From Candidatus Binatia bacterium (GTDB taxonomy: Bacteria > Desulfobacterota > Binatia > UBA9968): a stretch of 64,000 bases of DNA. The notes below the pieces were generated by a model. It was given only the letters and a program-made list of their open reading frames with translations. It searched no databases and was not told where the DNA came from. Positions 37,565-48,894 of the stretch are shown in pieces. Both the position numbers and the translations under genes were made by a program. Numbering within the stretch: the stretch's first letter is position 1; each line of letters opens with the position of its first letter. The stretch spans positions 6,167-70,166 of the forward strand of contig DASYRN010000041.1 in NCBI GenBank assembly GCA_036004365.1, written 5' to 3'.

Positions 37565-38705
37565 GGCCAGGAAGAATCCAGGGCTACAGCCTGCGGCTTT
37601 GGCGACAGCAAGCGGCGCTTATCTCATAGCCTAGCGGGAAGAGGCCGGTCGAAGTGGCGGATAGACGGTTTAAACTATGCCTTCAAGGCGCATATCATCC
37701 CGCACTTTGGCGAGTCGGCTTTGATAACTGACTTGACGCCACAAATGGTCGAGAATTTCATCGCGGCGCTGAAACGAAAGAGGCTCAAGAACAAGACAGT
37801 CAAGAACATCATCACGGACCTACGAGCGATGTTTAATTGGGCGATGGAAGAAGACATCAACCTTGTGGCGAGAAACCCGGTAACAAAGAAGGTGGCCAAG
37901 CTCATCGGGAGCACCAGAGCGGTTAAGGCGCCGATTAATCCCAGATGGTTCGACATCGCGGCGAGCGCAATCGAGAATAAGCGCGATCGGGCTTGGTTCG
38001 ATGTTACGCGCTATCTCGGGATGAGAAAAGACGAAGCCAACAGGCTTCAGTGGTCAGATATCAACTGGAGCGCGGGCAAAGTAAGAATACCCGGAACAAA
38101 AACGGATGAAGCGGAAGCATGGCTGCCGGTGGCTCTAAAGACATTGAGAGAATTATACGACTCGGCGGACAGGGATAAATCGCCCTACGTATTCCCTGGA
38201 AGGTCAGCGCAAACAAAAAGGGAAGAAAATCTACAGCCGGCGTAGAGTCTTTGAGAGAATCCAGCGGGTGACGGCTGTCAAGAAATATATGAGGCAGAAG
38301 TTAAGCTATGAGCAGGCCATGGAGGCGTGCAGCAAAGAGGGCTTTAAGGGCGGCATTCACCTTGCGCCAAAGGACCTGCGCGACTTCTTCTGTACTGAGA
38401 TTGCAGCCAAGTCGGATGATGCAAGCGTGGCCATGCGGCTGATGAGGCATACGAGCTTAGCGACTACGACTAAGTACATGAGAACGGTGGAAACAAGGAT
38501 GAGAGAAGCGGTTGAAAATCTTGGAGGCGGTTTTGGAGGCGATCCAATGGCCGGAAAAGGTCATGAAATGTCGCAACTGGCCAAGTTAGAAGAAATGAAA
38601 AAATTTGCCAGGGACTTGATAAAGCACGGAAATCTAAAAGGGATTTTTGGTGGCGGTGGACAGACTCGAACTGTCGACTCCGCGGATATGAGCCGCGTGC
38701 TCTGA
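37434..38705 (+). pseudogene. Tyrosine recombinase/integrase interrupted by two frameshifts
   Basis: There are three collinear pieces. Frame 0 (37434-37634) is N-terminal: KWGYRFYLRGQ. Frame 2 (about 37631-38245) carries GMRKDEANRLQW. Frame 0 (about 38205-38705) carries HLAPKDLRDFF, LMRHTS and TKYM, i.e. the R..H-x-x-R..H..Y catalytic set. The shifts are at about 37625-37635 and in the A5 run 38215-38219. Confidence 0.75.
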
Positions 38706-38724
38706 CCAACTGAGCTACACCGCC
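38648..38724 (-). tRNA. tRNA with CAT anticodon (elongator Met, or Ile2 if lysidine-modified); CCA encoded
   Basis: I folded a perfect cloverleaf by hand: GGCGGTG/CACCGCC acceptor, GCTC/GAGC D stem, CGCGG-CTCATAT-CCGCG anticodon arm, GACAG-TTCGAGT-CTGTC T arm. The G1-C72 pair argues against an initiator. Confidence 0.9.
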
Positions 38725-41777: not shown

Positions 41778-42152
41778 CTATCGGAGTAGTTTCTGGATTT
41801 TATTCTTCAGAATCGTGTAGTCCATGATAGGTTTCGCGATGTAATCATTGCAGCCGACATTAAGAGCCTTATCTTCATCGTTTTCCATTGCTTGAGCAGT
41901 TAGGGCGATAATAGGTAAGGCCTTTCCCCAAGTTGTTTTTCTCACGGCCTTGGTGGCTTCCCAACCATCCATTACAGGCATCTTCATGTCCATAATAATT
42001 AGATCCGGTGTGGACTTGCCTCCTATCTCAATAGCTTCCTTACCGTTGGTGGCAATCAAAACTTCATAGTTGCCCATGCCTTTAATTCTGTAAAGAAGGA
42101 TCTCACGAGTGTCTTCATTGTCTTCAACAACAAGTATCCTTTTCGCTTCCAT
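41778..42152 (-). CDS. Stand-alone receiver (CheY-like) response regulator
   Basis: ILVVEDNED, DLIIMDMKMPVMDG, ALTA and AKP motifs. 124 aa. Confidence 0.85.
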   Translation of the reverse strand: MEAKRILVVEDNEDTREILLYRIKGMGNYEVLIATNGKEAIEIGGKSTPDLIIMDMKMPVMDGWEATKAVRKTTWGKALPIIALTAQAMENDEDKALNVGCNDYIAKPIMDYTILKNKIQKLLR

Positions 42153-42217: not shown

Positions 42218-42246
42218 TTGTCAAGCAGATAAAAGAATAATATAAA
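42218..42246 (+). promoter_or_regulatory. Candidate sigma-70 promoter (TTGTCA-N17-TATAAA) for the sulfate-assimilation operon
   Basis: Read directly. It lies 38 nt upstream of ATG 42285. Confidence 0.5.
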
Positions 42247-42284
42247 AATGAACAGCGATTCTGTCTGACTATTATTTTGGTGCC

Positions 42285-42773
42285 ATGTATACTGAAGCTG
42301 GCGAGGAGCAGTTGTTATCGCAAAGTGTGGTTGTGACCCGGCTTGATAAGGCACTTGGTTGGGCGCGCAAGTATTCGATTTTCCCTTACCCCTTTGCTAC
42401 CGCATGCTGCGCCATGGAATATATGTCATTATCTATGTCGCCGTATGATATTGACCGTTTCGGGGCGCTCTTGCCTCGCTTTAGTCCGAGACAAGCTGAC
42501 TTGCTTATGGTCATAGGGACTGTGAATCATAAATTGGCCCCGGTGCTGAAAAGAGTTTACGAGCAGATGGGTGAGCCGAAATGGGTCATGGCCTTTGGTG
42601 CTTGTGCAGCAAGTGGGGGTTTTTACGATAACTACGCCACAGTTCAAGGAATTGATCGGATTATTCCGGTGGATGTTTATGTTGCTGGGTGTCCTCCCAG
42701 GCCTGAAGCGGTGCTGGATGGCTTAATGGAACTACAGGGCAAAATAGCAAAGCAGTCCCATCCTCTCATTTAG
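42285..42773 (+). CDS. NuoB-type (Oxidored_q6, 20-kDa subunit-like) [4Fe-4S] protein, orphan
   Basis: Collinear with complex I NuoB: ACCAME, RFSPRQADLLMV, GACAASGGFY and VAGCPPRPEA supply the four cluster cysteines. No other nuo gene is in the window. Confidence 0.8.
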   Translation: MYTEAGEEQLLSQSVVVTRLDKALGWARKYSIFPYPFATACCAMEYMSLSMSPYDIDRFGALLPRFSPRQADLLMVIGTVNHKLAPVLKRVYEQMGEPKWVMAFGACAASGGFYDNYATVQGIDRIIPVDVYVAGCPPRPEAVLDGLMELQGKIAKQSHPLI

Positions 42774-42853
42774 AAAAAATTTTTTTGCTATAGTTGACTT
42801 TAGCGATTGGAAATTATAAGAATGGAGCAAATACTGATCCCCAGACATTGTTA

Positions 42854-45166
42854 ATGGAGATTTCTATGATTGAAACTCAAACATGGAGGGAGAAACTTGC
42901 GGACCGCATGCCACTCGAGCTCGCCCGGGAAATCGACATCTTTGAGACCCAAATCGAGTTGCGGAAGCAAGGTAAAATAGATGAGAGAGTCTTTGCCGAA
43001 ACACGCCTGCGCCGTGGCGTTTATGGCCAGCGTTATGATAATGGGCAGCGCCATGATGGTAAACGGGTTCAGAAAATTAAGTTACCCTCCGAGAATTTAA
43101 CCAAAGGACCTGAAACAGTATGGGATGCTCCTGGCATGATGCGCATCAAAATTCCCTTCGGCGGCCTCGATCCTGAGCAGATGCAGGTGTTGGCCGATTT
43201 ATCCGAGGAGTATTCAGATGGAGTTTCCCACGTCACAACGCGCCAGGATATCCAATATCACTTTGTTCACATCGATGACACTCCCTCTCTTATGCGGCGT
43301 CTGGCTGCTGTCGGTATAACCACAAGGGAGGCGTGTGGTAATGCGGTGCGTAATGTCACGGCATGTCCGTTAGCTGGTGTTTGCAGGGATGAGATTTTTG
43401 ACGTGACTCCCTACGCAAAGGCATGTTCGAAATTCCTATTGGGTCATCGAGATACTCAGGACTTTGGCCGAAAATTCAAAATTGCATTTTCGGGATGCCA
43501 GCAACATCCGTGCGGTCTCGTCAGCATGCATGACATGGGAGCGATCGCGAAGAAAAGGCTCATCGATAATCAGGAGCAGCGTGGTTTTGAATTTTATGTT
43601 GGAGGCGGCCTTGGGGCTGTTACTTATAAGGCTCAACTATTCGAGGAATTCCTACCCGAAGAAGAACTTTTGCCTATGGCTCAGGCGATATCGCGAGTCT
43701 TTGCCCGATTAGGTGAAAAACGCAATCGAGCTCGGGCACGTATCAAATTCTTGGTTGCACATCTGGGTATCGAGGAATTCCGTAGAATTGTTTTAGAGGA
43801 GCGACGAAGACTTTCGCACGATCCCCGATGGACGGATTACCTGGCTAAGGCCTACGATTATTCTGAGACTCCGCTAAAATCGCCTGTGTTTCTCAACGGG
43901 GGTGAGCATCCCGAAGGATTCGATGCCTGGCATGCTACAAATGTCTATCGTCAAAGACAACAAGGGTATGCCGTAGCAACAGTGACCCTTCCTTTGGGTG
44001 ACATCACGGCAGATCAGCTTCGGTCCTTGGCGGATATTGCACAGCGTTTTGTCAAAGATACCATACGGACCACAGTAGACCAAAATATTCTACTGCGTTG
44101 GGTGAGTGAGGCAGACCTTCCCGAAGTTTATCGTGCTTTAAAAGCGATCGGACTGGCAGAGCCGAACGCCGGGACGATTGTTGACGTAACAGCGTGTCCG
44201 GGAACAGATACTTGCAAGCTCGGTATTGCGTCCTCCAGAGGACTCGCGCGGGAGCTCAGAAATCGCTTAAGTGAAAAGGGCTTTGAGACAGATTCGGCGG
44301 TTAAGGATCTCCGAATCAAGGTTAGCGGCTGCTTTAATTCCTGTGGGCAGCACCATATTGCAGATATCGGTTTCTACGGCATCAGCAGGAATGTTAACGG
44401 CTATACCGTGCCACATTTTCAGGTGATTCTGGGAGGAAAATTTAGTGAGAATGCCGGCGCATACGGCCTGCCCATTGGGGCTATTCCGTCAAAACGGATA
44501 CCCGAAGTCGTCGAGCGGGTCACCAGTCGCTACATCAAGGAGCGCCAGAAGGGGGAAAGCTTTCAGAATTTTAGCAACCGCATTGGCAAGAAACAGCTTA
44601 AAGCTATGTTGGAAGATCTCACACAGATTCCTCCGCACGACGTCGATCGTTCGTATTACAGCGATTGGGGTGACCCGCGTGAATTTACCTTAAGCGATTT
44701 GGGCACTGGAGAATGCGCCGGAGAGGTTGTTTCTCAGTCGCAGTTTAGTCTCGCGGCAAGTGAGCGGGAGTTTTTTGAGGCTCAGATCTATTTTGATGCC
44801 GGGGATTTTAAGAAGGCGATTCAAACCGCTTATGGCGCCATGGTTCAGGCGGCTCAGGCACTCGTTAAGATCGAGAACTACGATATTTCGAATGACGAGA
44901 ACGCTATTCTTAGTGAGTTTCGCCGCCGCTTCTGTGAAACAGAGATCTTTTATGACAAATATGCAGGCGGAAAATTTGCAGAGTATTTGTTCAAGGCGGG
45001 AGAAATTTTAAAGAGCAATGGTGATGTAGACAAGGATATAGGGCTGCAGCGTCTTCAGGAGGCGCAGCTTTTCATTGATGCGGCACATAGCTGCTACAAC
45101 AAAATGCAGACGGCGGCTGCGAGTCGGCCGGGCCATGCCGTTCCCACCGCCGCGGCCCGAGCTTAG
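42854..45166 (+). CDS. sir: Siroheme/[4Fe-4S] sulfite (nitrite) reductase hemoprotein, ferredoxin-type, with an extra C-terminal domain of about 180 aa
   Basis: Cluster/siroheme motif TACPGTDTCKLG ... SGCFNSCGQH and a pseudo-repeat N-half. Start is ATG 42854 or ATG 42866 (GGAG 6 nt upstream); the ORF track starts at TTG 42794. Confidence 0.85.
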   Translation: MEISMIETQTWREKLADRMPLELAREIDIFETQIELRKQGKIDERVFAETRLRRGVYGQRYDNGQRHDGKRVQKIKLPSENLTKGPETVWDAPGMMRIKIPFGGLDPEQMQVLADLSEEYSDGVSHVTTRQDIQYHFVHIDDTPSLMRRLAAVGITTREACGNAVRNVTACPLAGVCRDEIFDVTPYAKACSKFLLGHRDTQDFGRKFKIAFSGCQQHPCGLVSMHDMGAIAKKRLIDNQEQRGFEFYVGGGLGAVTYKAQLFEEFLPEEELLPMAQAISRVFARLGEKRNRARARIKFLVAHLGIEEFRRIVLEERRRLSHDPRWTDYLAKAYDYSETPLKSPVFLNGGEHPEGFDAWHATNVYRQRQQGYAVATVTLPLGDITADQLRSLADIAQRFVKDTIRTTVDQNILLRWVSEADLPEVYRALKAIGLAEPNAGTIVDVTACPGTDTCKLGIASSRGLARELRNRLSEKGFETDSAVKDLRIKVSGCFNSCGQHHIADIGFYGISRNVNGYTVPHFQVILGGKFSENAGAYGLPIGAIPSKRIPEVVERVTSRYIKERQKGESFQNFSNRIGKKQLKAMLEDLTQIPPHDVDRSYYSDWGDPREFTLSDLGTGECAGEVVSQSQFSLAASEREFFEAQIYFDAGDFKKAIQTAYGAMVQAAQALVKIENYDISNDENAILSEFRRRFCETEIFYDKYAGGKFAEYLFKAGEILKSNGDVDKDIGLQRLQEAQLFIDAAHSCYNKMQTAAASRPGHAVPTAAARA

Positions 45167-45175
45167 TGGGACAGA

Positions 45176-45784
45176 ATGGAGCTCCAAAAAATTAACGTAA
45201 AGTTTTTCACGCGAAGTCCCTACGAGGTTTCCCTGACCGACTTTATCGATATTTTTAATTCGTGGGTTCAAGGCTCGGAAGGGGATTTCTATGATTTAGC
45301 TGACTACAGTCACATGCAGGCGGGCCCGGGCATCCTATTGATAGCTCATGAGGCCAATATCAGTATTGATGAAACCGGAGGCCGTCGAGGGCTGCTTTAC
45401 AATCTCAAACGGCCCCTCCAAGGCTCAAACAGTCACAGGCTTAGATGGGTCTTTATGGCTGCGTTGGAGTATTGCCGACGCATAGAGGAAGAGCCTTCGA
45501 TAAAGGGAAGAATCAAGTTTTCCGGAGATGAGGCTCTTTTGTTGATCAATGACCGGCTTCTTGCGCCCAATAATGAGGAAAGCTTTCATGTTGTAAGGCC
45601 CGACCTAGAGGATCTAGCGCGGACTCTCTATGCGGGCGCCAACTTTAATTTAGAGCCGAGCACAAGAGATCGCAGAGAACGGTTTGGGGTGAAAATAAAA
45701 ACGCCTATCTCCTTCGACATTGTGACGCTCCTAAAGAATCTAGAGGAGCGCCATGCTGATGTAGGGAAAAGCGCGGTCACCTAG
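45176..45784 (+). CDS. Hypothetical protein (202 aa) embedded in the sulfate-assimilation operon
   Basis: It starts 9 nt after the sir stop and ends 22 nt before the next gene. I recognise no motif. Confidence 0.6.
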   Translation: MELQKINVKFFTRSPYEVSLTDFIDIFNSWVQGSEGDFYDLADYSHMQAGPGILLIAHEANISIDETGGRRGLLYNLKRPLQGSNSHRLRWVFMAALEYCRRIEEEPSIKGRIKFSGDEALLLINDRLLAPNNEESFHVVRPDLEDLARTLYAGANFNLEPSTRDRRERFGVKIKTPISFDIVTLLKNLEERHADVGKSAVT

Positions 45785-45806
45785 AATGGAAGAGAGGAAA
45801 TAAGCG

Positions 45807-47750
45807 ATGTCAATAACTGCGAAAAGTCAGGATTGGCTCCAACAGAGTGAAGCCCTAGAGAAACTTTCAGCCACAGAGCTTCTGGAGTGGGCATTTAAAA
45901 TCTTTTATCCAAGAATTACGCTGGCCTGCTCCTTTCAGGCTGAAGAGTCAGTGCTCATAGACATGATGCATGCCGTTCGCGGATCCGATTTTCGGATATT
46001 CACATTGGATACGGGGCGGCTCAATCAGGAGACCTATGATTGCATGGACGCGATACGACAGCGCTACGGGATCCACATTGAAGTTTTCTTCCCTGATGCT
46101 TCCCAGGTGGAGAGCATGGTTCGGAACTATGGGCTCAACCTCTTTTACAAATCCGTGGATTTACGCAAAATGTGCTGCGGGATCCGCAAGGTAGAGCCCC
46201 TCAACCGGGCGCTGAAGGGTTTAGATGCCTGGATAACCGGACTACGCCGTGAGCAGGCTGTTACCCGAGGCGCTGTCCGGAAGGTTGAGATCGACAAAGA
46301 CCACGGCGGAATTGTCAAGCTGAATCCATTGGCCGATTGGAGCGACAGACAGGTGTGGGACTACATCCATGAAAATCACCTGCCTTACAACAAGCTCCAC
46401 GATCAGGGGTATCCCAGCATTGGCTGCGCCCCTTGCACGCGGGCCATCAAACCCGCGGAAGATGTTCGTGCCGGAAGATGGTGGTGGGAAACACCGGAGT
46501 CGAAAGAGTGCGGACTTCATGCGGCCTCTATAGCGAAGGAAGCGGTGAAAACAGTTACAGGCGAAGAAAAAAACGGGACAGGACAAATAGCCCCTCACGG
46601 AGGGCGATTGATTAATAGGGTTCTGGTTGGACAGGAGCAGGAAGAGACGCTGGCGAAATCCGGAGAGCTTAAGAAGATCGCCCTAAATGCCCGCACCCTC
46701 TCGGATCTCGAACTCTTGGCCGTTGGGGCCTTCAGTCCTCTGGAAGGTTTCATGGGAAGGAAGGATTACGAGCGTGTCGTTAACGAAATGCGCCTTTCCT
46801 CCGGGCTCCTCTGGACTCTCCCCCTCACTCTAGCCGTTTCTTCCGATGAGGCAAAGGAGCTGCGTGAAGGAGAAGAGATAGCCCTACTCGACTCATCGGG
46901 AGAGGTGGTGGCGGTTTTCTTTCTCGAGGAGAAATATGGCTATGATAAGAAGGAGGAGGCGTGGAAAGTTTATCGGACTGACGAGGATAAACATCCAGGA
47001 GTTTGGTATCTCTACCAACGAGGGAACACGCTCTTGGGCGGTAAGATTAGCCTCGTGCGGAGGCCATCTCTCCTGTCTGGCTTTGAAGCCTACAAACTTG
47101 ATCCGGCTGAAACCAGAGCGATATTCAAGCAGCGAGGTTGGCGTACTGTGGTTGGGTTTCAGACACGAAATCCTATCCACAGATCTCACGAGTATATCCA
47201 AAAGAGCGCCCTCGAGTTGATGGACGGTCTCCTAATTCATCCTCTGGTAGGCAAGACAAAGCTGGATGACATCCCATCCGAAGTCCGGCTGCGCTGCTAT
47301 GAGGTTTTGATCGAGCATTATTTTCCTAAAGAGCGGACTCTCCTATCGGTTTTTCCTGGGGCGATGCGCTATGCGGGGCCGAGGGAAGCGGTCTTTCACG
47401 CTATCGTTCGAAAAAATTACGGCTGCACACACTTCATCGTGGGGAGGGATGCGGCGGGGATCGGGGGATATTATGGTCCCTATGAGGCTTGGGACTTGTT
47501 CGCTCTCTTTAAGCGAGACGACCTGGACATCACGCCCCTTTTCTTTGCCGAGGCTTTCTACTGCCGCAAGTGCGACGCCGTGGCCTCAGCCAAGACTTGT
47601 CCCCACGAAAGTCGCCACCATGTCGCGCTTTCTGGGACTAGGGTTCGTGAGCTGCTTCAGGTCGGAGATCCCTTGCCACCTGAGTTCACCCGCCCGGAAG
47701 TAGGGGAGATCCTGGGAGAATGGTCCCGAGGCCAATTCAACGACCAATAG
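45807..47750 (+). CDS. Fusion protein: Fe-S-type APS (adenylylsulfate) reductase (CysH-like) N-terminal, ATP sulfurylase (Sat) C-terminal
   Basis: N-half has the CC (KMCCGIRKVE) and CxxC (GCAPCT) cluster cysteines plus ECGLH. C-half has PHGGRLINR, QTRNPIHRSHE and GPREAVFHAIVRKNYGCTHFIVGRDAAG. It is a single 647-aa ORF with no internal stop. Confidence 0.85.
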   Translation: MSITAKSQDWLQQSEALEKLSATELLEWAFKIFYPRITLACSFQAEESVLIDMMHAVRGSDFRIFTLDTGRLNQETYDCMDAIRQRYGIHIEVFFPDASQVESMVRNYGLNLFYKSVDLRKMCCGIRKVEPLNRALKGLDAWITGLRREQAVTRGAVRKVEIDKDHGGIVKLNPLADWSDRQVWDYIHENHLPYNKLHDQGYPSIGCAPCTRAIKPAEDVRAGRWWWETPESKECGLHAASIAKEAVKTVTGEEKNGTGQIAPHGGRLINRVLVGQEQEETLAKSGELKKIALNARTLSDLELLAVGAFSPLEGFMGRKDYERVVNEMRLSSGLLWTLPLTLAVSSDEAKELREGEEIALLDSSGEVVAVFFLEEKYGYDKKEEAWKVYRTDEDKHPGVWYLYQRGNTLLGGKISLVRRPSLLSGFEAYKLDPAETRAIFKQRGWRTVVGFQTRNPIHRSHEYIQKSALELMDGLLIHPLVGKTKLDDIPSEVRLRCYEVLIEHYFPKERTLLSVFPGAMRYAGPREAVFHAIVRKNYGCTHFIVGRDAAGIGGYYGPYEAWDLFALFKRDDLDITPLFFAEAFYCRKCDAVASAKTCPHESRHHVALSGTRVRELLQVGDPLPPEFTRPEVGEILGEWSRGQFNDQ

Positions 47751-47781
47751 TTTATACAAAAGAGGCTTTAAAATACTGGAC

Positions 47782-48105
47782 ATGTCAGGACCTAGTAATA
47801 TCGAAGTGCAAAAAGATCTCTTTCATCACGGTTTTATCAGCAAACTTTTCCCCAGCAACAACATGGGATTGGTTCGGACTGAGAGCGGTCGAGAAATTCC
47901 GTTCTCGTTCCAGTTTGTCATTCTATTGGGTGAGGTGAACAATCCTAGTGAACTCACGGAGGGGCAGGCAGTTGGCTATGATTTAGGCTGGACCTCTAAT
48001 GGCCTCCGCGTGACCAAAATCAAGACTTATGCGGGCGAGCCGCCTGGAAAAACAGAGTCCGATTTAGAGGGGGAGGGAGGTCAAAGCCAGAATCTGCCTT
48101 CCTAG
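47782..48105 (+). CDS. Hypothetical protein, possibly OB/cold-shock-domain-like
   Basis: 107 aa, 31 nt after the fusion gene. The pattern GFISKLF...GLVRTESGREIPFSF...EGQAVGYDL loosely recalls a CSD without RNP motifs. Confidence 0.4.
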   Translation: MSGPSNIEVQKDLFHHGFISKLFPSNNMGLVRTESGREIPFSFQFVILLGEVNNPSELTEGQAVGYDLGWTSNGLRVTKIKTYAGEPPGKTESDLEGEGGQSQNLPS

Positions 48106-48894
48106 GATCTCTCCCACGAACACACCGAGTAGGGCAATGTAGAAAAGGCCGGTGGCTGCCATCGTATGAGGTATTTGTAGGGTGCGCCATATCATGTAGG
48201 ATAAAACCAAAGGGCAAACCTGGCCTATCAGCAGCCGGGCTAAAAGGAGCAGGCGGTGATTTTCCCAGAGGAGCTCAAGATTGGATGCGGCTGCCGGGGT
48301 TCCCAGCACGTACAACAACAAAGAAGAAGCGATCGCCAATCCCGCTTGAACCACTAGCGATATCAAGAAGAATTTGAAAATACGGACAAAGGGGTCGATG
48401 CTCTGTCCGGTATCGATCAGATACCAGTGGCCAATGAGCATGCCTACAGTTACCGCTCCGAGAAGCAGCGAAGAAGCAACGAAGCTTAGCGGATAGATCA
48501 AGGTCTCAATCGACCAGAAGGGGGCTCGGTGAAATGCCTCGGCACTGACGCAGAGGCCTGCCACACCCAAAAATAGAGAATGGGCAAATGCGCGAGCCCT
48601 AAGGACAACCTTCTCGCCCCAAAGAGAATAGAGATAGAGGGCAAAACTGAGCAGGAAGAGAATATAAAGGGCAATCTCTATCTTTGTTGCCAAGCTACTG
48701 GATTCACTAAGAGATCTCCTATAAAGATCAATCTTTCCCCATAGACCGAGCAACCCCAATACGAACAGGACACCAGCAGTTGATTTGTAAAAGCCCCTCT
48801 CTAGTTCGTGGAATGGAGTCGCTGCGACGGCGAAAAGACCACCCACGGCAACCTGATAAAAGAGGATCAAAAAGCTTTCCGGAAATACCTGCAT
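48064..48894 (-). CDS. Polytopic membrane protein of unknown function
   Basis: 276 aa with about 8 hydrophobic helices. It is the last gene of a minus-strand polyprenyl synthase-ubiE operon, 7 nt after the ubiE stop. Confidence 0.6.
   Translation of the reverse strand: MQVFPESFLILFYQVAVGGLFAVAATPFHELERGFYKSTAGVLFVLGLLGLWGKIDLYRRSLSESSSLATKIEIALYILFLLSFALYLYSLWGEKVVLRARAFAHSLFLGVAGLCVSAEAFHRAPFWSIETLIYPLSFVASSLLLGAVTVGMLIGHWYLIDTGQSIDPFVRIFKFFLISLVVQAGLAIASSLLLYVLGTPAAASNLELLWENHRLLLLARLLIGQVCPLVLSYMIWRTLQIPHTMAATGLFYIALLGVFVGEILGRQILALTSLPL

Follow-up and report, generated by a model that had tools for sequence, protein, structure and literature searches.

The sulfate-assimilation genes in a 64,000-nucleotide stretch of contig DASYRN010000041.1 from a Candidatus Binatia bacterium (hereafter the window) lie directly downstream of a stand-alone gene for a homolog of complex I subunit B, here called nuoB*. 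An earlier reading of this DNA, the original prediction, had taken nuoB* and the sulfur genes for a single operon in which the NuoB-like protein supplies electrons to the sulfite reductase. Our analysis makes it quite probable that two independent units stand side by side, namely an autonomous sulfate-reduction cassette and an unrelated nuoB* in a conserved gene frame of its own. NuoB* is probably next to the cassette by chance of position and probably not a new electron donor for the sulfite reductase Sir. The features on which this argument depends are the following.

42285..42773, plus strand: nuoB*, 162 aa, from PF01058, NF011392, alignments, and neighborhood tables
42794..42822, plus strand: promoter-like element of the sulfur cassette, a conserved box in nuoB*-sir spacers
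42866..44602, plus strand: core of sir (start at 42866, or at 42854 in the original prediction), from PF03460/PF01077 and the match to 1zj8
44603..45166, plus strand: C-terminal extension of Sir, HEPN-like by AlphaFold2 and Foldseek
45176..45784, plus strand: ORF3, 202 aa, of an uncharacterized family, directly after the extended Sir
45807..47750, plus strand: cysH::sat, 647 aa, from Pfam and NCBIfam matches and motifs

All five open reading frames (ORFs) of the original prediction lie where it had placed them, with intergenic gaps of 9, 22, and 31 nt as it had given them, and its domain calls (NuoB-type, siroheme reductase, CysH-Sat) were upheld by profile searches against Pfam and NCBIfam. 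The neighborhood survey was based on 80 metagenome loci and the best 80 genome loci around NuoB*, each with flanks of +/-10 kb, onto which the proteins of the window, the neighbor proteins of locus L036, and E. coli Nuo probes were mapped. A second sampling was made from the ORF3 side, using loci around ORF3 homologs. Loci carry L-numbers and members of the ORF3 family carry P-numbers. The source clade is the uncultured Binatota (Candidatus Binatia; also UBP10), and nearly all homologs of ORF3 and NuoB belong to metagenome-assembled genomes (MAGs) of this kind, many of them filed under old 'Deltaproteobacteria' labels.

Four further features of the window define the frame in which nuoB* is found.

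41778..42152, minus strand: gene for a single-domain response regulator, divergent from nuoB*
42219..42247, strand undecided: promoter-like element between the divergent nuoB* and response-regulator genes, from its sequence and spacer conservation
47782..48105, plus strand: ORF5, 107 aa, a small conserved protein of the nuoB* frame, from tblastn tables
48064..48894, minus strand: Mem276, a polytopic membrane protein of 276 aa, convergent with ORF5 and the right border of the frame

When genomes with a NuoB* at least 86% identical to that of the window are considered, nuoB* is followed directly by ORF5, without sir, in 17 of 22, and sir-ORF3-cysH is inserted at this point in 5 of 22. The order in the 17 genomes (APH on the minus strand, CSD, nuoB*, ORF5, and then Mem276, UbiE, and a polyprenyl synthase gene on the minus strand) is that of the window minus the insert. 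Informative metagenome loci give the same picture, with sir absent from the nuoB*-ORF5 junction in 27/29 and present in 2/29. The original prediction had itself named a non-conserved neighborhood as a reason to give it up, and this is what the survey found, since sir is absent beside most close nuoB* genes. Adjacency of nuoB* and sir recurs in one sub-lineage (L032, L033, L084, L085, L088, L096, L099, L164, L166, L170, L173, and L174). The response-regulator gene is present in all five of the sir-inserted genomes and in every sir-carrying locus with a readable upstream flank, and also in at least one locus without sir (L005). From the ORF3 side, Sir and ORF3 form an invariant pair, which lies downstream of nuoB* in L164, L166/167, L170, L173, and L174 and occurs without any nuoB in L002, L168/L169, and L172; in L168/L169 and L172, sir is immediately preceded by a gene for an Rrf2-type regulator. 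With cassettes that lack nuoB and nuoB* genes that mostly lack sir, the proposed input protein and the reductase are neither fused nor obligately co-encoded. Moreover, the extended Sir proteins are 77–83% identical to each other with or without nuoB* upstream, and the NuoB* proteins of sir-free loci are as near to the window protein (up to 94%) as those of sir-linked loci.

The spacer between nuoB* and sir provides a second line of evidence. The original prediction had a single promoter upstream of nuoB* serving all of the genes, which is incomplete, as it missed a second promoter-like site, located between nuoB* and sir, that is far better conserved. This element (42794..42822) reads TTGACTTTAGCGATTGGAAATTATAAGAA, with TTGACT at 42794 and a –10 hexamer that is either TATAAG (15-nt spacer) or AAGAAT (18 nt). 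The box TTGAC[AT]-N14-18-TAnnAn is found in 14/14 nuoB*-sir spacers, where the background would give 0.004 per 150 nt, and it is also found upstream of sir in the nuoB-free L002, while being absent from all 43 of the nuoB*-ORF5 spacers without sir. This distribution suggests that the sulfur cassette brings its own sigma-70-like promoter, the activity of which is predicted from sequence conservation. The ATTGGAAAT part of the element resembles the ATCGGAAAT half-site of a CCGAT..ATCGG palindrome of relatives. This palindrome (CCGAT-N7-9-ATCGGAAAT) lies near the sir promoter in the spacers of L032, L033, L096, and L099, its counterpart in the window being 42800-42815, and it may be a plausible operator.

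According to the original prediction, NuoB*, perhaps with ORF3 and the C-terminal domain of Sir, is a dedicated electron-input subunit, and the four genes make up one functional operon. If true, this would be a new way of feeding electrons to an assimilatory sulfite reductase, but the evidence says otherwise and we regard the proposal as highly improbable. nuoB* and sir do share a strand, with a gap of 80–92 nt and no predicted terminator, their order does recur across the loci of the sub-lineage, and the cassette does lack any other electron donor gene. However, most close relatives lack the adjacency, cassettes without nuoB are found, the cassette has a conserved promoter-like box of its own, and by sequence the NuoB* of sir-linked loci cannot be told apart from that of sir-free ones. 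NuoB binds one [4Fe-4S] cluster and has no site for the oxidation of NADH, F420H2, or ferredoxin, so that a lone NuoB cannot be an electron-input module. A site of this kind (flavin, F420, or NADH) was not found elsewhere in the proposed module either, as NuoB* matches PF01058 only, and ORF3 and the HEPN-like extension of Sir have no cofactor motif and no match to a cofactor-binding family. Finally, the usual partners of nuoB* in other lineages are nuoF and nuoG or a nuo operon. With adjacency not conserved, a separate promoter box, and nuo partners elsewhere, the role of the NuoB-like protein as dedicated electron input is not supported.

NuoB* itself is a full-length NuoB (PF01058 94.8 bits; NF011392 equivalog 278.1 against a cut-off of 271; TIGR01957 210 against 142.7), whose alignment with E. 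coli NuoB and Thermus Nqo6 spans the whole protein at 46–52% identity. The four cysteines of the N2 cluster (tandem CC, C, and CP) and the conserved E and D residues are kept, as seen in the alignment at ACCAME, GACA, and GCPPRPE. Identity is 74–94% across the best 80 genome matches, with one locus per genome, and all of these 80 are Binatota/Binatia MAGs or are filed under older names for the phylum. In other Binatia orders, nuoF and nuoG come after nuoB* in 42/58 genomes, in triads that lack nuoA/C/D/E/H; the NuoF scores 610 bits with TIGR01959 (cut-off 559) and the short NuoG 469.6 with TIGR01973, for which the cut-off is 470.05. In nine further genomes, among them the closed chromosomes OZ243961.1 and OZ243979.1, nuoB* lies ~650 nt upstream of an 11-gene nuo operon (nuoA-B-C-D-H-I-J-K-L-M) without nuoEFG, whose own NuoB is 41–45% identical to NuoB*. 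Because of this second nuoB inside the nuo operon, NuoB* is a paralogue in these nine genomes, and its nuoF-nuoG or nuo-operon neighbors in the other orders mark it as a distinct, constrained paralogue tied to NADH-dehydrogenase genes. As such, NuoB* is a phylum-wide and highly conserved Binatota paralogue of complex I subunit B, and it is not a sulfur-assimilation protein; its membership in a respiratory complex is presumed from these neighbors.

Some of these loci show additional features. Two nuoB genes lie within ~1.6 kb of each other in L109, L110, L111, L115, L117, L118, L123, L127, and L131 (for example, L110 9962-12056), and a gene for an Rrf2-type regulator is located between nuoB* and the nuoA-M operon in L110. 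Directly upstream of NuoB* in the same locus (L110 6932-9926, OZ243961.1) is a set resembling Fe-S biogenesis genes, with an ApbC/Mrp-like protein (323 bits, below the cut-off of 348), a 2Fe-2S ferredoxin, an FNR-like protein, an IscU that passes the TIGR01999 cut-off, and a small ORF that we take from its sequence to be DUF971-like. In L153 and L106, none of nuoF/G, the nuoA operon, ORF5, or sir was detectable around NuoB* in the fetched flanks.

An alternative, which the original prediction had itself listed among the things that would overturn it, holds that nuoB* is the only nuoB of the genome, displaced from a nuo operon that lacks one. NuoB* passes as a NuoB equivalog and retains every functional residue, and its extreme conservation is what would be expected of a core subunit. 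All Binatota genomes are reported to encode complex I (PMC8262859), a literature in which no subunit-level data were found, and Nitrospina gracilis offers the precedent of a stand-alone nuoB2 that is part of a dispersed second complex I along with a nuoACHIJKLMN cluster (PMC3578206). In the window, nuoB* does not have the placement between nuoA and nuoC that is usual in nuo operons; no other nuo gene occurs in the 64 kb, and its neighbors are the response-regulator gene and sir. However, the displacement is false in the nine genomes of another Binatia lineage, where a second nuoB is found inside the adjoining nuoA-M operon. We consider this explanation rather unlikely for the window, though it is the strongest of the alternatives to two independent units.

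The independence of the two units must also be weighed against a second clade of siroheme reductases, here called Sir'. These NirA-like proteins of 549–565 aa are 39–41% identical to Sir and have neither the HEPN-like extension nor ORF3. Sir' follows nuoB*-nuoF-nuoG and precedes ORF5 and Mem276 in the tight clusters of L036 (9959-15331), L038, L044, L050, and L122, and it is found near nuoB*-nuoF-nuoG in L152, L159, and L161, with a large opposite-strand gene intervening in the last two. No nuoE homolog was found within 10 kb in any locus. A siroheme reductase is thus located downstream of nuoB* in two arrangements, either as Sir directly or as Sir' after nuoB*-nuoF-nuoG, and this recurrence exceeds what random gene order would give and is explained only in part by inherited synteny. 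This weighs against independence, as do several features of the window itself. No terminator-like site occurs between nuoB* and sir, so that read-through co-transcription of the two is possible; the cassette promoter is predicted from a consensus match; the cassette contains no gene for a ferredoxin or ferredoxin reductase; and neither a second nuoB nor a nuo operon is present within the 64-kb window, a statement that holds for the window only.

Sir and Sir' have diverged to a degree similar to that seen for ORF5 and Mem276 when the same lineages are compared, and an ancestral nuoB*-nuoF-nuoG-sir-ORF5 order with later losses is therefore plausible. Such an ancestral arrangement leaves room for NuoB*FG as an NADH-driven module able to serve siroheme reductases. 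It has to be asked, then, whether NuoB*, NuoF, and NuoG, which are adjacent in most Binatia and would be encoded elsewhere in this genome, form a soluble NADH-oxidizing module that feeds siroheme reductases among other acceptors, in the manner of the HoxFU-HoxY diaphorase plus small-subunit part of NAD-linked hydrogenases. The 42 genomes with triads lacking nuoA/C/D/E/H, the tight placement of Sir' after nuoG and before ORF5 in L036, L050, and L122, and the 'extra' status of NuoB* in the nine genomes with a separate nuoB in the nuo operon would agree with this, as would the recurrence of siroheme reductases at the locus in two orders. On the other hand, only ~9/80 genomes have any sir-type gene near nuoB*, the large opposite-strand gene in L159 and L161 splits Sir'-ORF5 from the triad, the scores of NuoF and NuoG are those of ordinary complex I subunits, NuoB* keeps the canonical complex-I residues, a dispersed complex I with a stand-alone nuoB is documented in Nitrospina gracilis (PMC3578206), and the window contains no nuoF or nuoG. 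We consider such a module in this genome improbable. We are equally doubtful of the broader proposal that NuoB*, NuoF, and the short NuoG of Binatota constitute an NADH-oxidizing Fe-S module that stands at least partly outside complex I and donates to siroheme sulfite or nitrite reductases. If true, the module would explain why two Sir clades are found downstream of nuoB* or nuoB*-nuoF-nuoG in different orders.

Returning to the two independent units, the cassette is best described from its reductase. Sir has the duplicated architecture of siroheme reductases (PF03460 x2 and PF01077 x2), and the cluster motifs CPGTDTC and CFNSC are present in its translation. The nearest solved relative is M. 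tuberculosis NirA/SirA (1zj8, E 2e-54, residues 95-576). Sir scores below the curated equivalog thresholds (NF007126 283.7 vs 523 bits; TIGR02042 120.1 vs 731) and is therefore assigned to the NirA/SirA type at the family level only. The context of cysH, sat, and siroheme genes argues for sulfite, and not nitrite, as its substrate, and by analogy with the closest characterized relatives the most likely source of its electrons is a ferredoxin whose gene lies elsewhere. The sir ORF of the original prediction (42854-45166) is real, but the likelier start is the ATG at 42866, which has GGAG 6 nt upstream and agrees with homologs beginning M-T-x-x-x-x-W; the ORF can also be opened from a TTG at 42794.

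The core of Sir ends near residue 590 and is followed by an extension of ~190 residues that is absent from 1zj8. The extension consists of a conserved linker (DWGDPREF..GECAGE) and a helical bundle that ends in HSCY, and almost all of its 682 homologs carry the annotation of a sulfite reductase fragment. No Pfam match was found, nor any match to a HEPN family at E <= 10. Its AlphaFold2 model (predicted local distance difference test score, pLDDT, 81) has the HEPN protein 2hsb as top Foldseek match (E 1.4e-4, probability 1.0, target template modeling (TM) score 0.78), with dozens of further HEPN structures matched, and the predicted fold of the extension is thus HEPN-like. The Rx4-6H motif was not found, as the sole conserved histidine is that of HSCY and has no arginine 4–6 residues upstream. 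The extension carries no cofactor motif and only two conserved cysteines.

ORF3, which the original prediction had left as unrecognized, has no Pfam or NCBIfam match even at E = 10, and nothing meaningful was found among PDB sequences. The family is large, with 894 close homologs. A profile search yielded 1,601 clusters (50% identity), of which 350 had E <= 1e-30, and the proteins are almost all ~190 aa long. Ten members were scanned, of which seven had no Pfam match, one had a sub-threshold match to DUF6944, and two were fusion candidates. The AlphaFold2 model (pLDDT 82, predicted TM score 0.83) has an alpha/beta fold. No fold assignment was made, since a Foldseek search of the PDB returned no significant match (best E 8e-3, TM <= 0.39), and weak matches to coproheme decarboxylase, ACT, and KH were not used. 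The conserved positions are polar (D40, D43, Y44, H46, D65, E104, R127, and N132), no cysteine is conserved across the wider family, and no cofactor motif is present. In every locus examined, ORF3 lies directly after a HEPN-extended Sir, and it is absent beside the shorter Sir' clade. One member of the family (P0501/P0526, 348 aa), present in two independent sources, is fused to a C-terminal rhodanese domain with a CQSGARS active-site loop. P0409 looks like a fusion of Sir and ORF3 but is probably the artefact of a frameshift, because low-complexity sequence replaces the last HEPN helix at the junction, and we counted it only as evidence of adjacency. The original prediction had taken ORF3 and the Sir extension for possible parts of the electron input. 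Their link to each other stands, but an electron-input role is not supported, as cofactor motifs are missing from both. We tentatively suggest that ORF3 and the HEPN-like domain could be an accessory pair specific to Sir that deals with sulfur species or with assembly, and not with electrons.

The last gene of the cassette, cysH::sat, encodes an APS (adenosine 5'-phosphosulfate) reductase at residues ~7-241 and an ATP sulfurylase at ~260-642 (PF01507, PF14306, and PF01747). The former exceeds its thresholds (TIGR02055 272 vs 235; NF002537 292 vs 154), and the motifs CC..CxxC (CCGIRK, GCAPC) and KECGLH in the translation are those of the Fe-S type. The latter, with PUA_2 and ATP-sulfurylase domains, does so as well (NF003166 547 vs 387; TIGR00339 439 vs 323). 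The fusion is not an assembly artefact, since L173 and L175, which were assembled independently, encode it as well (647 and 640 aa, respectively). It is a recent joining of neighboring genes, and these are still apart in L085, L170, and L171. In relatives, the cassette also includes genes for siroheme biosynthesis, TauE, and a CysA-like protein, which makes it a coherent sulfur island, and this island can occupy different chromosomal sites.

The locus may therefore be pictured as follows, with functions predicted from homology. The first unit, from ~42794 to 47750, would consist of a sigma-70-type promoter, sir with its HEPN-like domain, the obligate partner ORF3, and cysH::sat. Sulfate would be activated to APS by Sat, APS reduced to sulfite by the thiol-dependent Fe-S APS reductase, and sulfite reduced to sulfide by Sir with electrons from a ferredoxin encoded elsewhere. 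The self-contained sulfate-to-sulfide route of the original prediction is thus retained, with all three enzymes encoded, and so are the non-textbook features it had pointed out, namely the extended Sir, the 202-aa partner, and the CysH::Sat fusion. The second unit would be nuoB*, a stand-alone gene here, in a frame of CSD, response regulator, nuoB*, ORF5, and Mem276, and the sulfur cassette lies between nuoB* and ORF5 in one sub-lineage only. Gene content, domain identities, and neighborhood distribution were observed directly, as were the conservation of the promoter box and the fold matches of the extension model.

The frame itself has features of interest. Upstream of nuoB*, the hexamers TTGTCA (42219-42224) and TATAAA (42242-42247) of the original prediction are present on the plus strand with an N17 spacer, but the conserved part of this region reads better on the minus strand, for the divergent response-regulator gene. 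TTGTCAAG and CAGRGTAARAC are kept in 19/19 spacers that bear the response-regulator gene, and CAGRGTAARAC and CTTGTCAAG, read in reverse in these 19 spacers, give TTGACA-N17/18-TAC(T/C)CT, with the –10 further upstream in plus coordinates. The plus-strand TATAAA is restricted to the window and its two nearest relatives, L173 and L174. The putative response-regulator promoter overlaps the TTGTCA-N17-TATAAA site, and from its sequence the element at 42219..42247 may function as a promoter. ORF5 belongs to the nuoB* frame, being directly after nuoB* where sir is absent, and has no Pfam or NCBIfam match even at E = 10; its identification as a divergent cold-shock/OB-fold protein was rejected (hhalign probability 7.7%). 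Mem276 is found beside ORF5, in convergent orientation, across Binatia orders (the window, L001, L036, L116, and others), with the invariant motifs GHWYLI and IPxTMAATGLFY and no match in Pfam, NCBIfam, or PDB (profile searches).

Elsewhere in the window, the adjacent ORFs 37721-38245 and 38268-38705 look like a tyrosine recombinase/integrase split into its N- and C-terminal halves and abut a tRNA gene (38651-38724, minus strand); they could be the remnant of an integrated element. Base composition as a sign of cassette insertion showed no clear anomaly, and an Rfam scan found no riboswitch or other RNA family in the region, with two tRNAs elsewhere only.

Binatota is a globally distributed uncultured phylum, and three aspects of the locus bear on its biology. 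The HEPN-extended Sir, which is widespread and strictly paired with the ORF3 family, is a candidate for an accessory role not yet accounted for in ferredoxin-type sulfite reduction. The bacterial APS-reductase::ATP-sulfurylase fusion is a new piece. Finally, a conserved second NuoB with variable partners bears on how complex I or a module derived from it is built in this phylum.

Comparison with known systems places each part of the locus. The stand-alone nuoB* is most similar to NUO-2 of Nitrospina gracilis (PMC3578206), in which a bona fide NuoB-type gene also lies outside a nuo operon, in a lineage with more than one nuo set, and both nuoB2 and nuoF2 stand alone. The two differ in that Binatia nuoB* is usually linked to an apparently canonical nuoF and nuoG, whereas NUO-2 has an FMN-less NuoF2, and in that nuoB* can adjoin an 11-gene operon already holding a nuoB, whereas the NUO-2 cluster has none. 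The Fsr of methanogens (PDB 7np8), which the original prediction had cited as a precedent, has in common with it the concept of a siroheme sulfite reductase that is driven by a dehydrogenase module, and the sequence of Fsr matches Sir weakly and in the Sir half only (E 1.6e-9). Unlike the Binatia locus, Fsr is a single polypeptide with an FrhB/FpoF-like F420H2-oxidizing domain; the Binatia locus has no donor-oxidizing domain, no fusion, and no conserved co-encoding.

The extension of Sir resembles HEPN domains such as AF_0298 (PDB 2hsb) in its predicted four/five-helix up-down bundle, but it differs from them in lacking Rx4-6H and a Pfam HEPN match, in being fused to a redox enzyme, and in having GECAGE and HSCY motifs of its own. 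A fusion of ATP sulfurylase (ATPS) and APS reductase (APR) is known from the dinoflagellate Heterocapsa triquetra (PMC2275785). Both enzymes are likewise joined in one polypeptide there, with presumed channeling of APS, whereas the Binatia fusion is bacterial and has the order APR then ATPS.

The closest parallel for the cassette as a whole is found in actinobacterial operons (M. tuberculosis sirA/nirA-cysH-che1; C. glutamicum fpr2-cysIXHDNYZ, PMC1266029), which likewise combine a monomeric Sir of the NirA/SirA type, a small accessory gene, and an Fe-S APS reductase. CysJ and APS kinase are absent from both, and siroheme genes belong to the same cluster in relatives. Unlike its actinobacterial counterparts, the Binatia Sir has the ~190-aa HEPN-like extension, and the accessory ORF3 is unrelated to CysX, an 82-aa four-cysteine protein in C. 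glutamicum that was considered as a relative and is a positional analogue only. The ATP sulfurylase also differs, being of the homo-oligomeric Sat type and fused to CysH in place of CysDN. The locus is thus a variant of the known ferredoxin-type sulfate-assimilation operon, located beside an unrelated NuoB paralogue.

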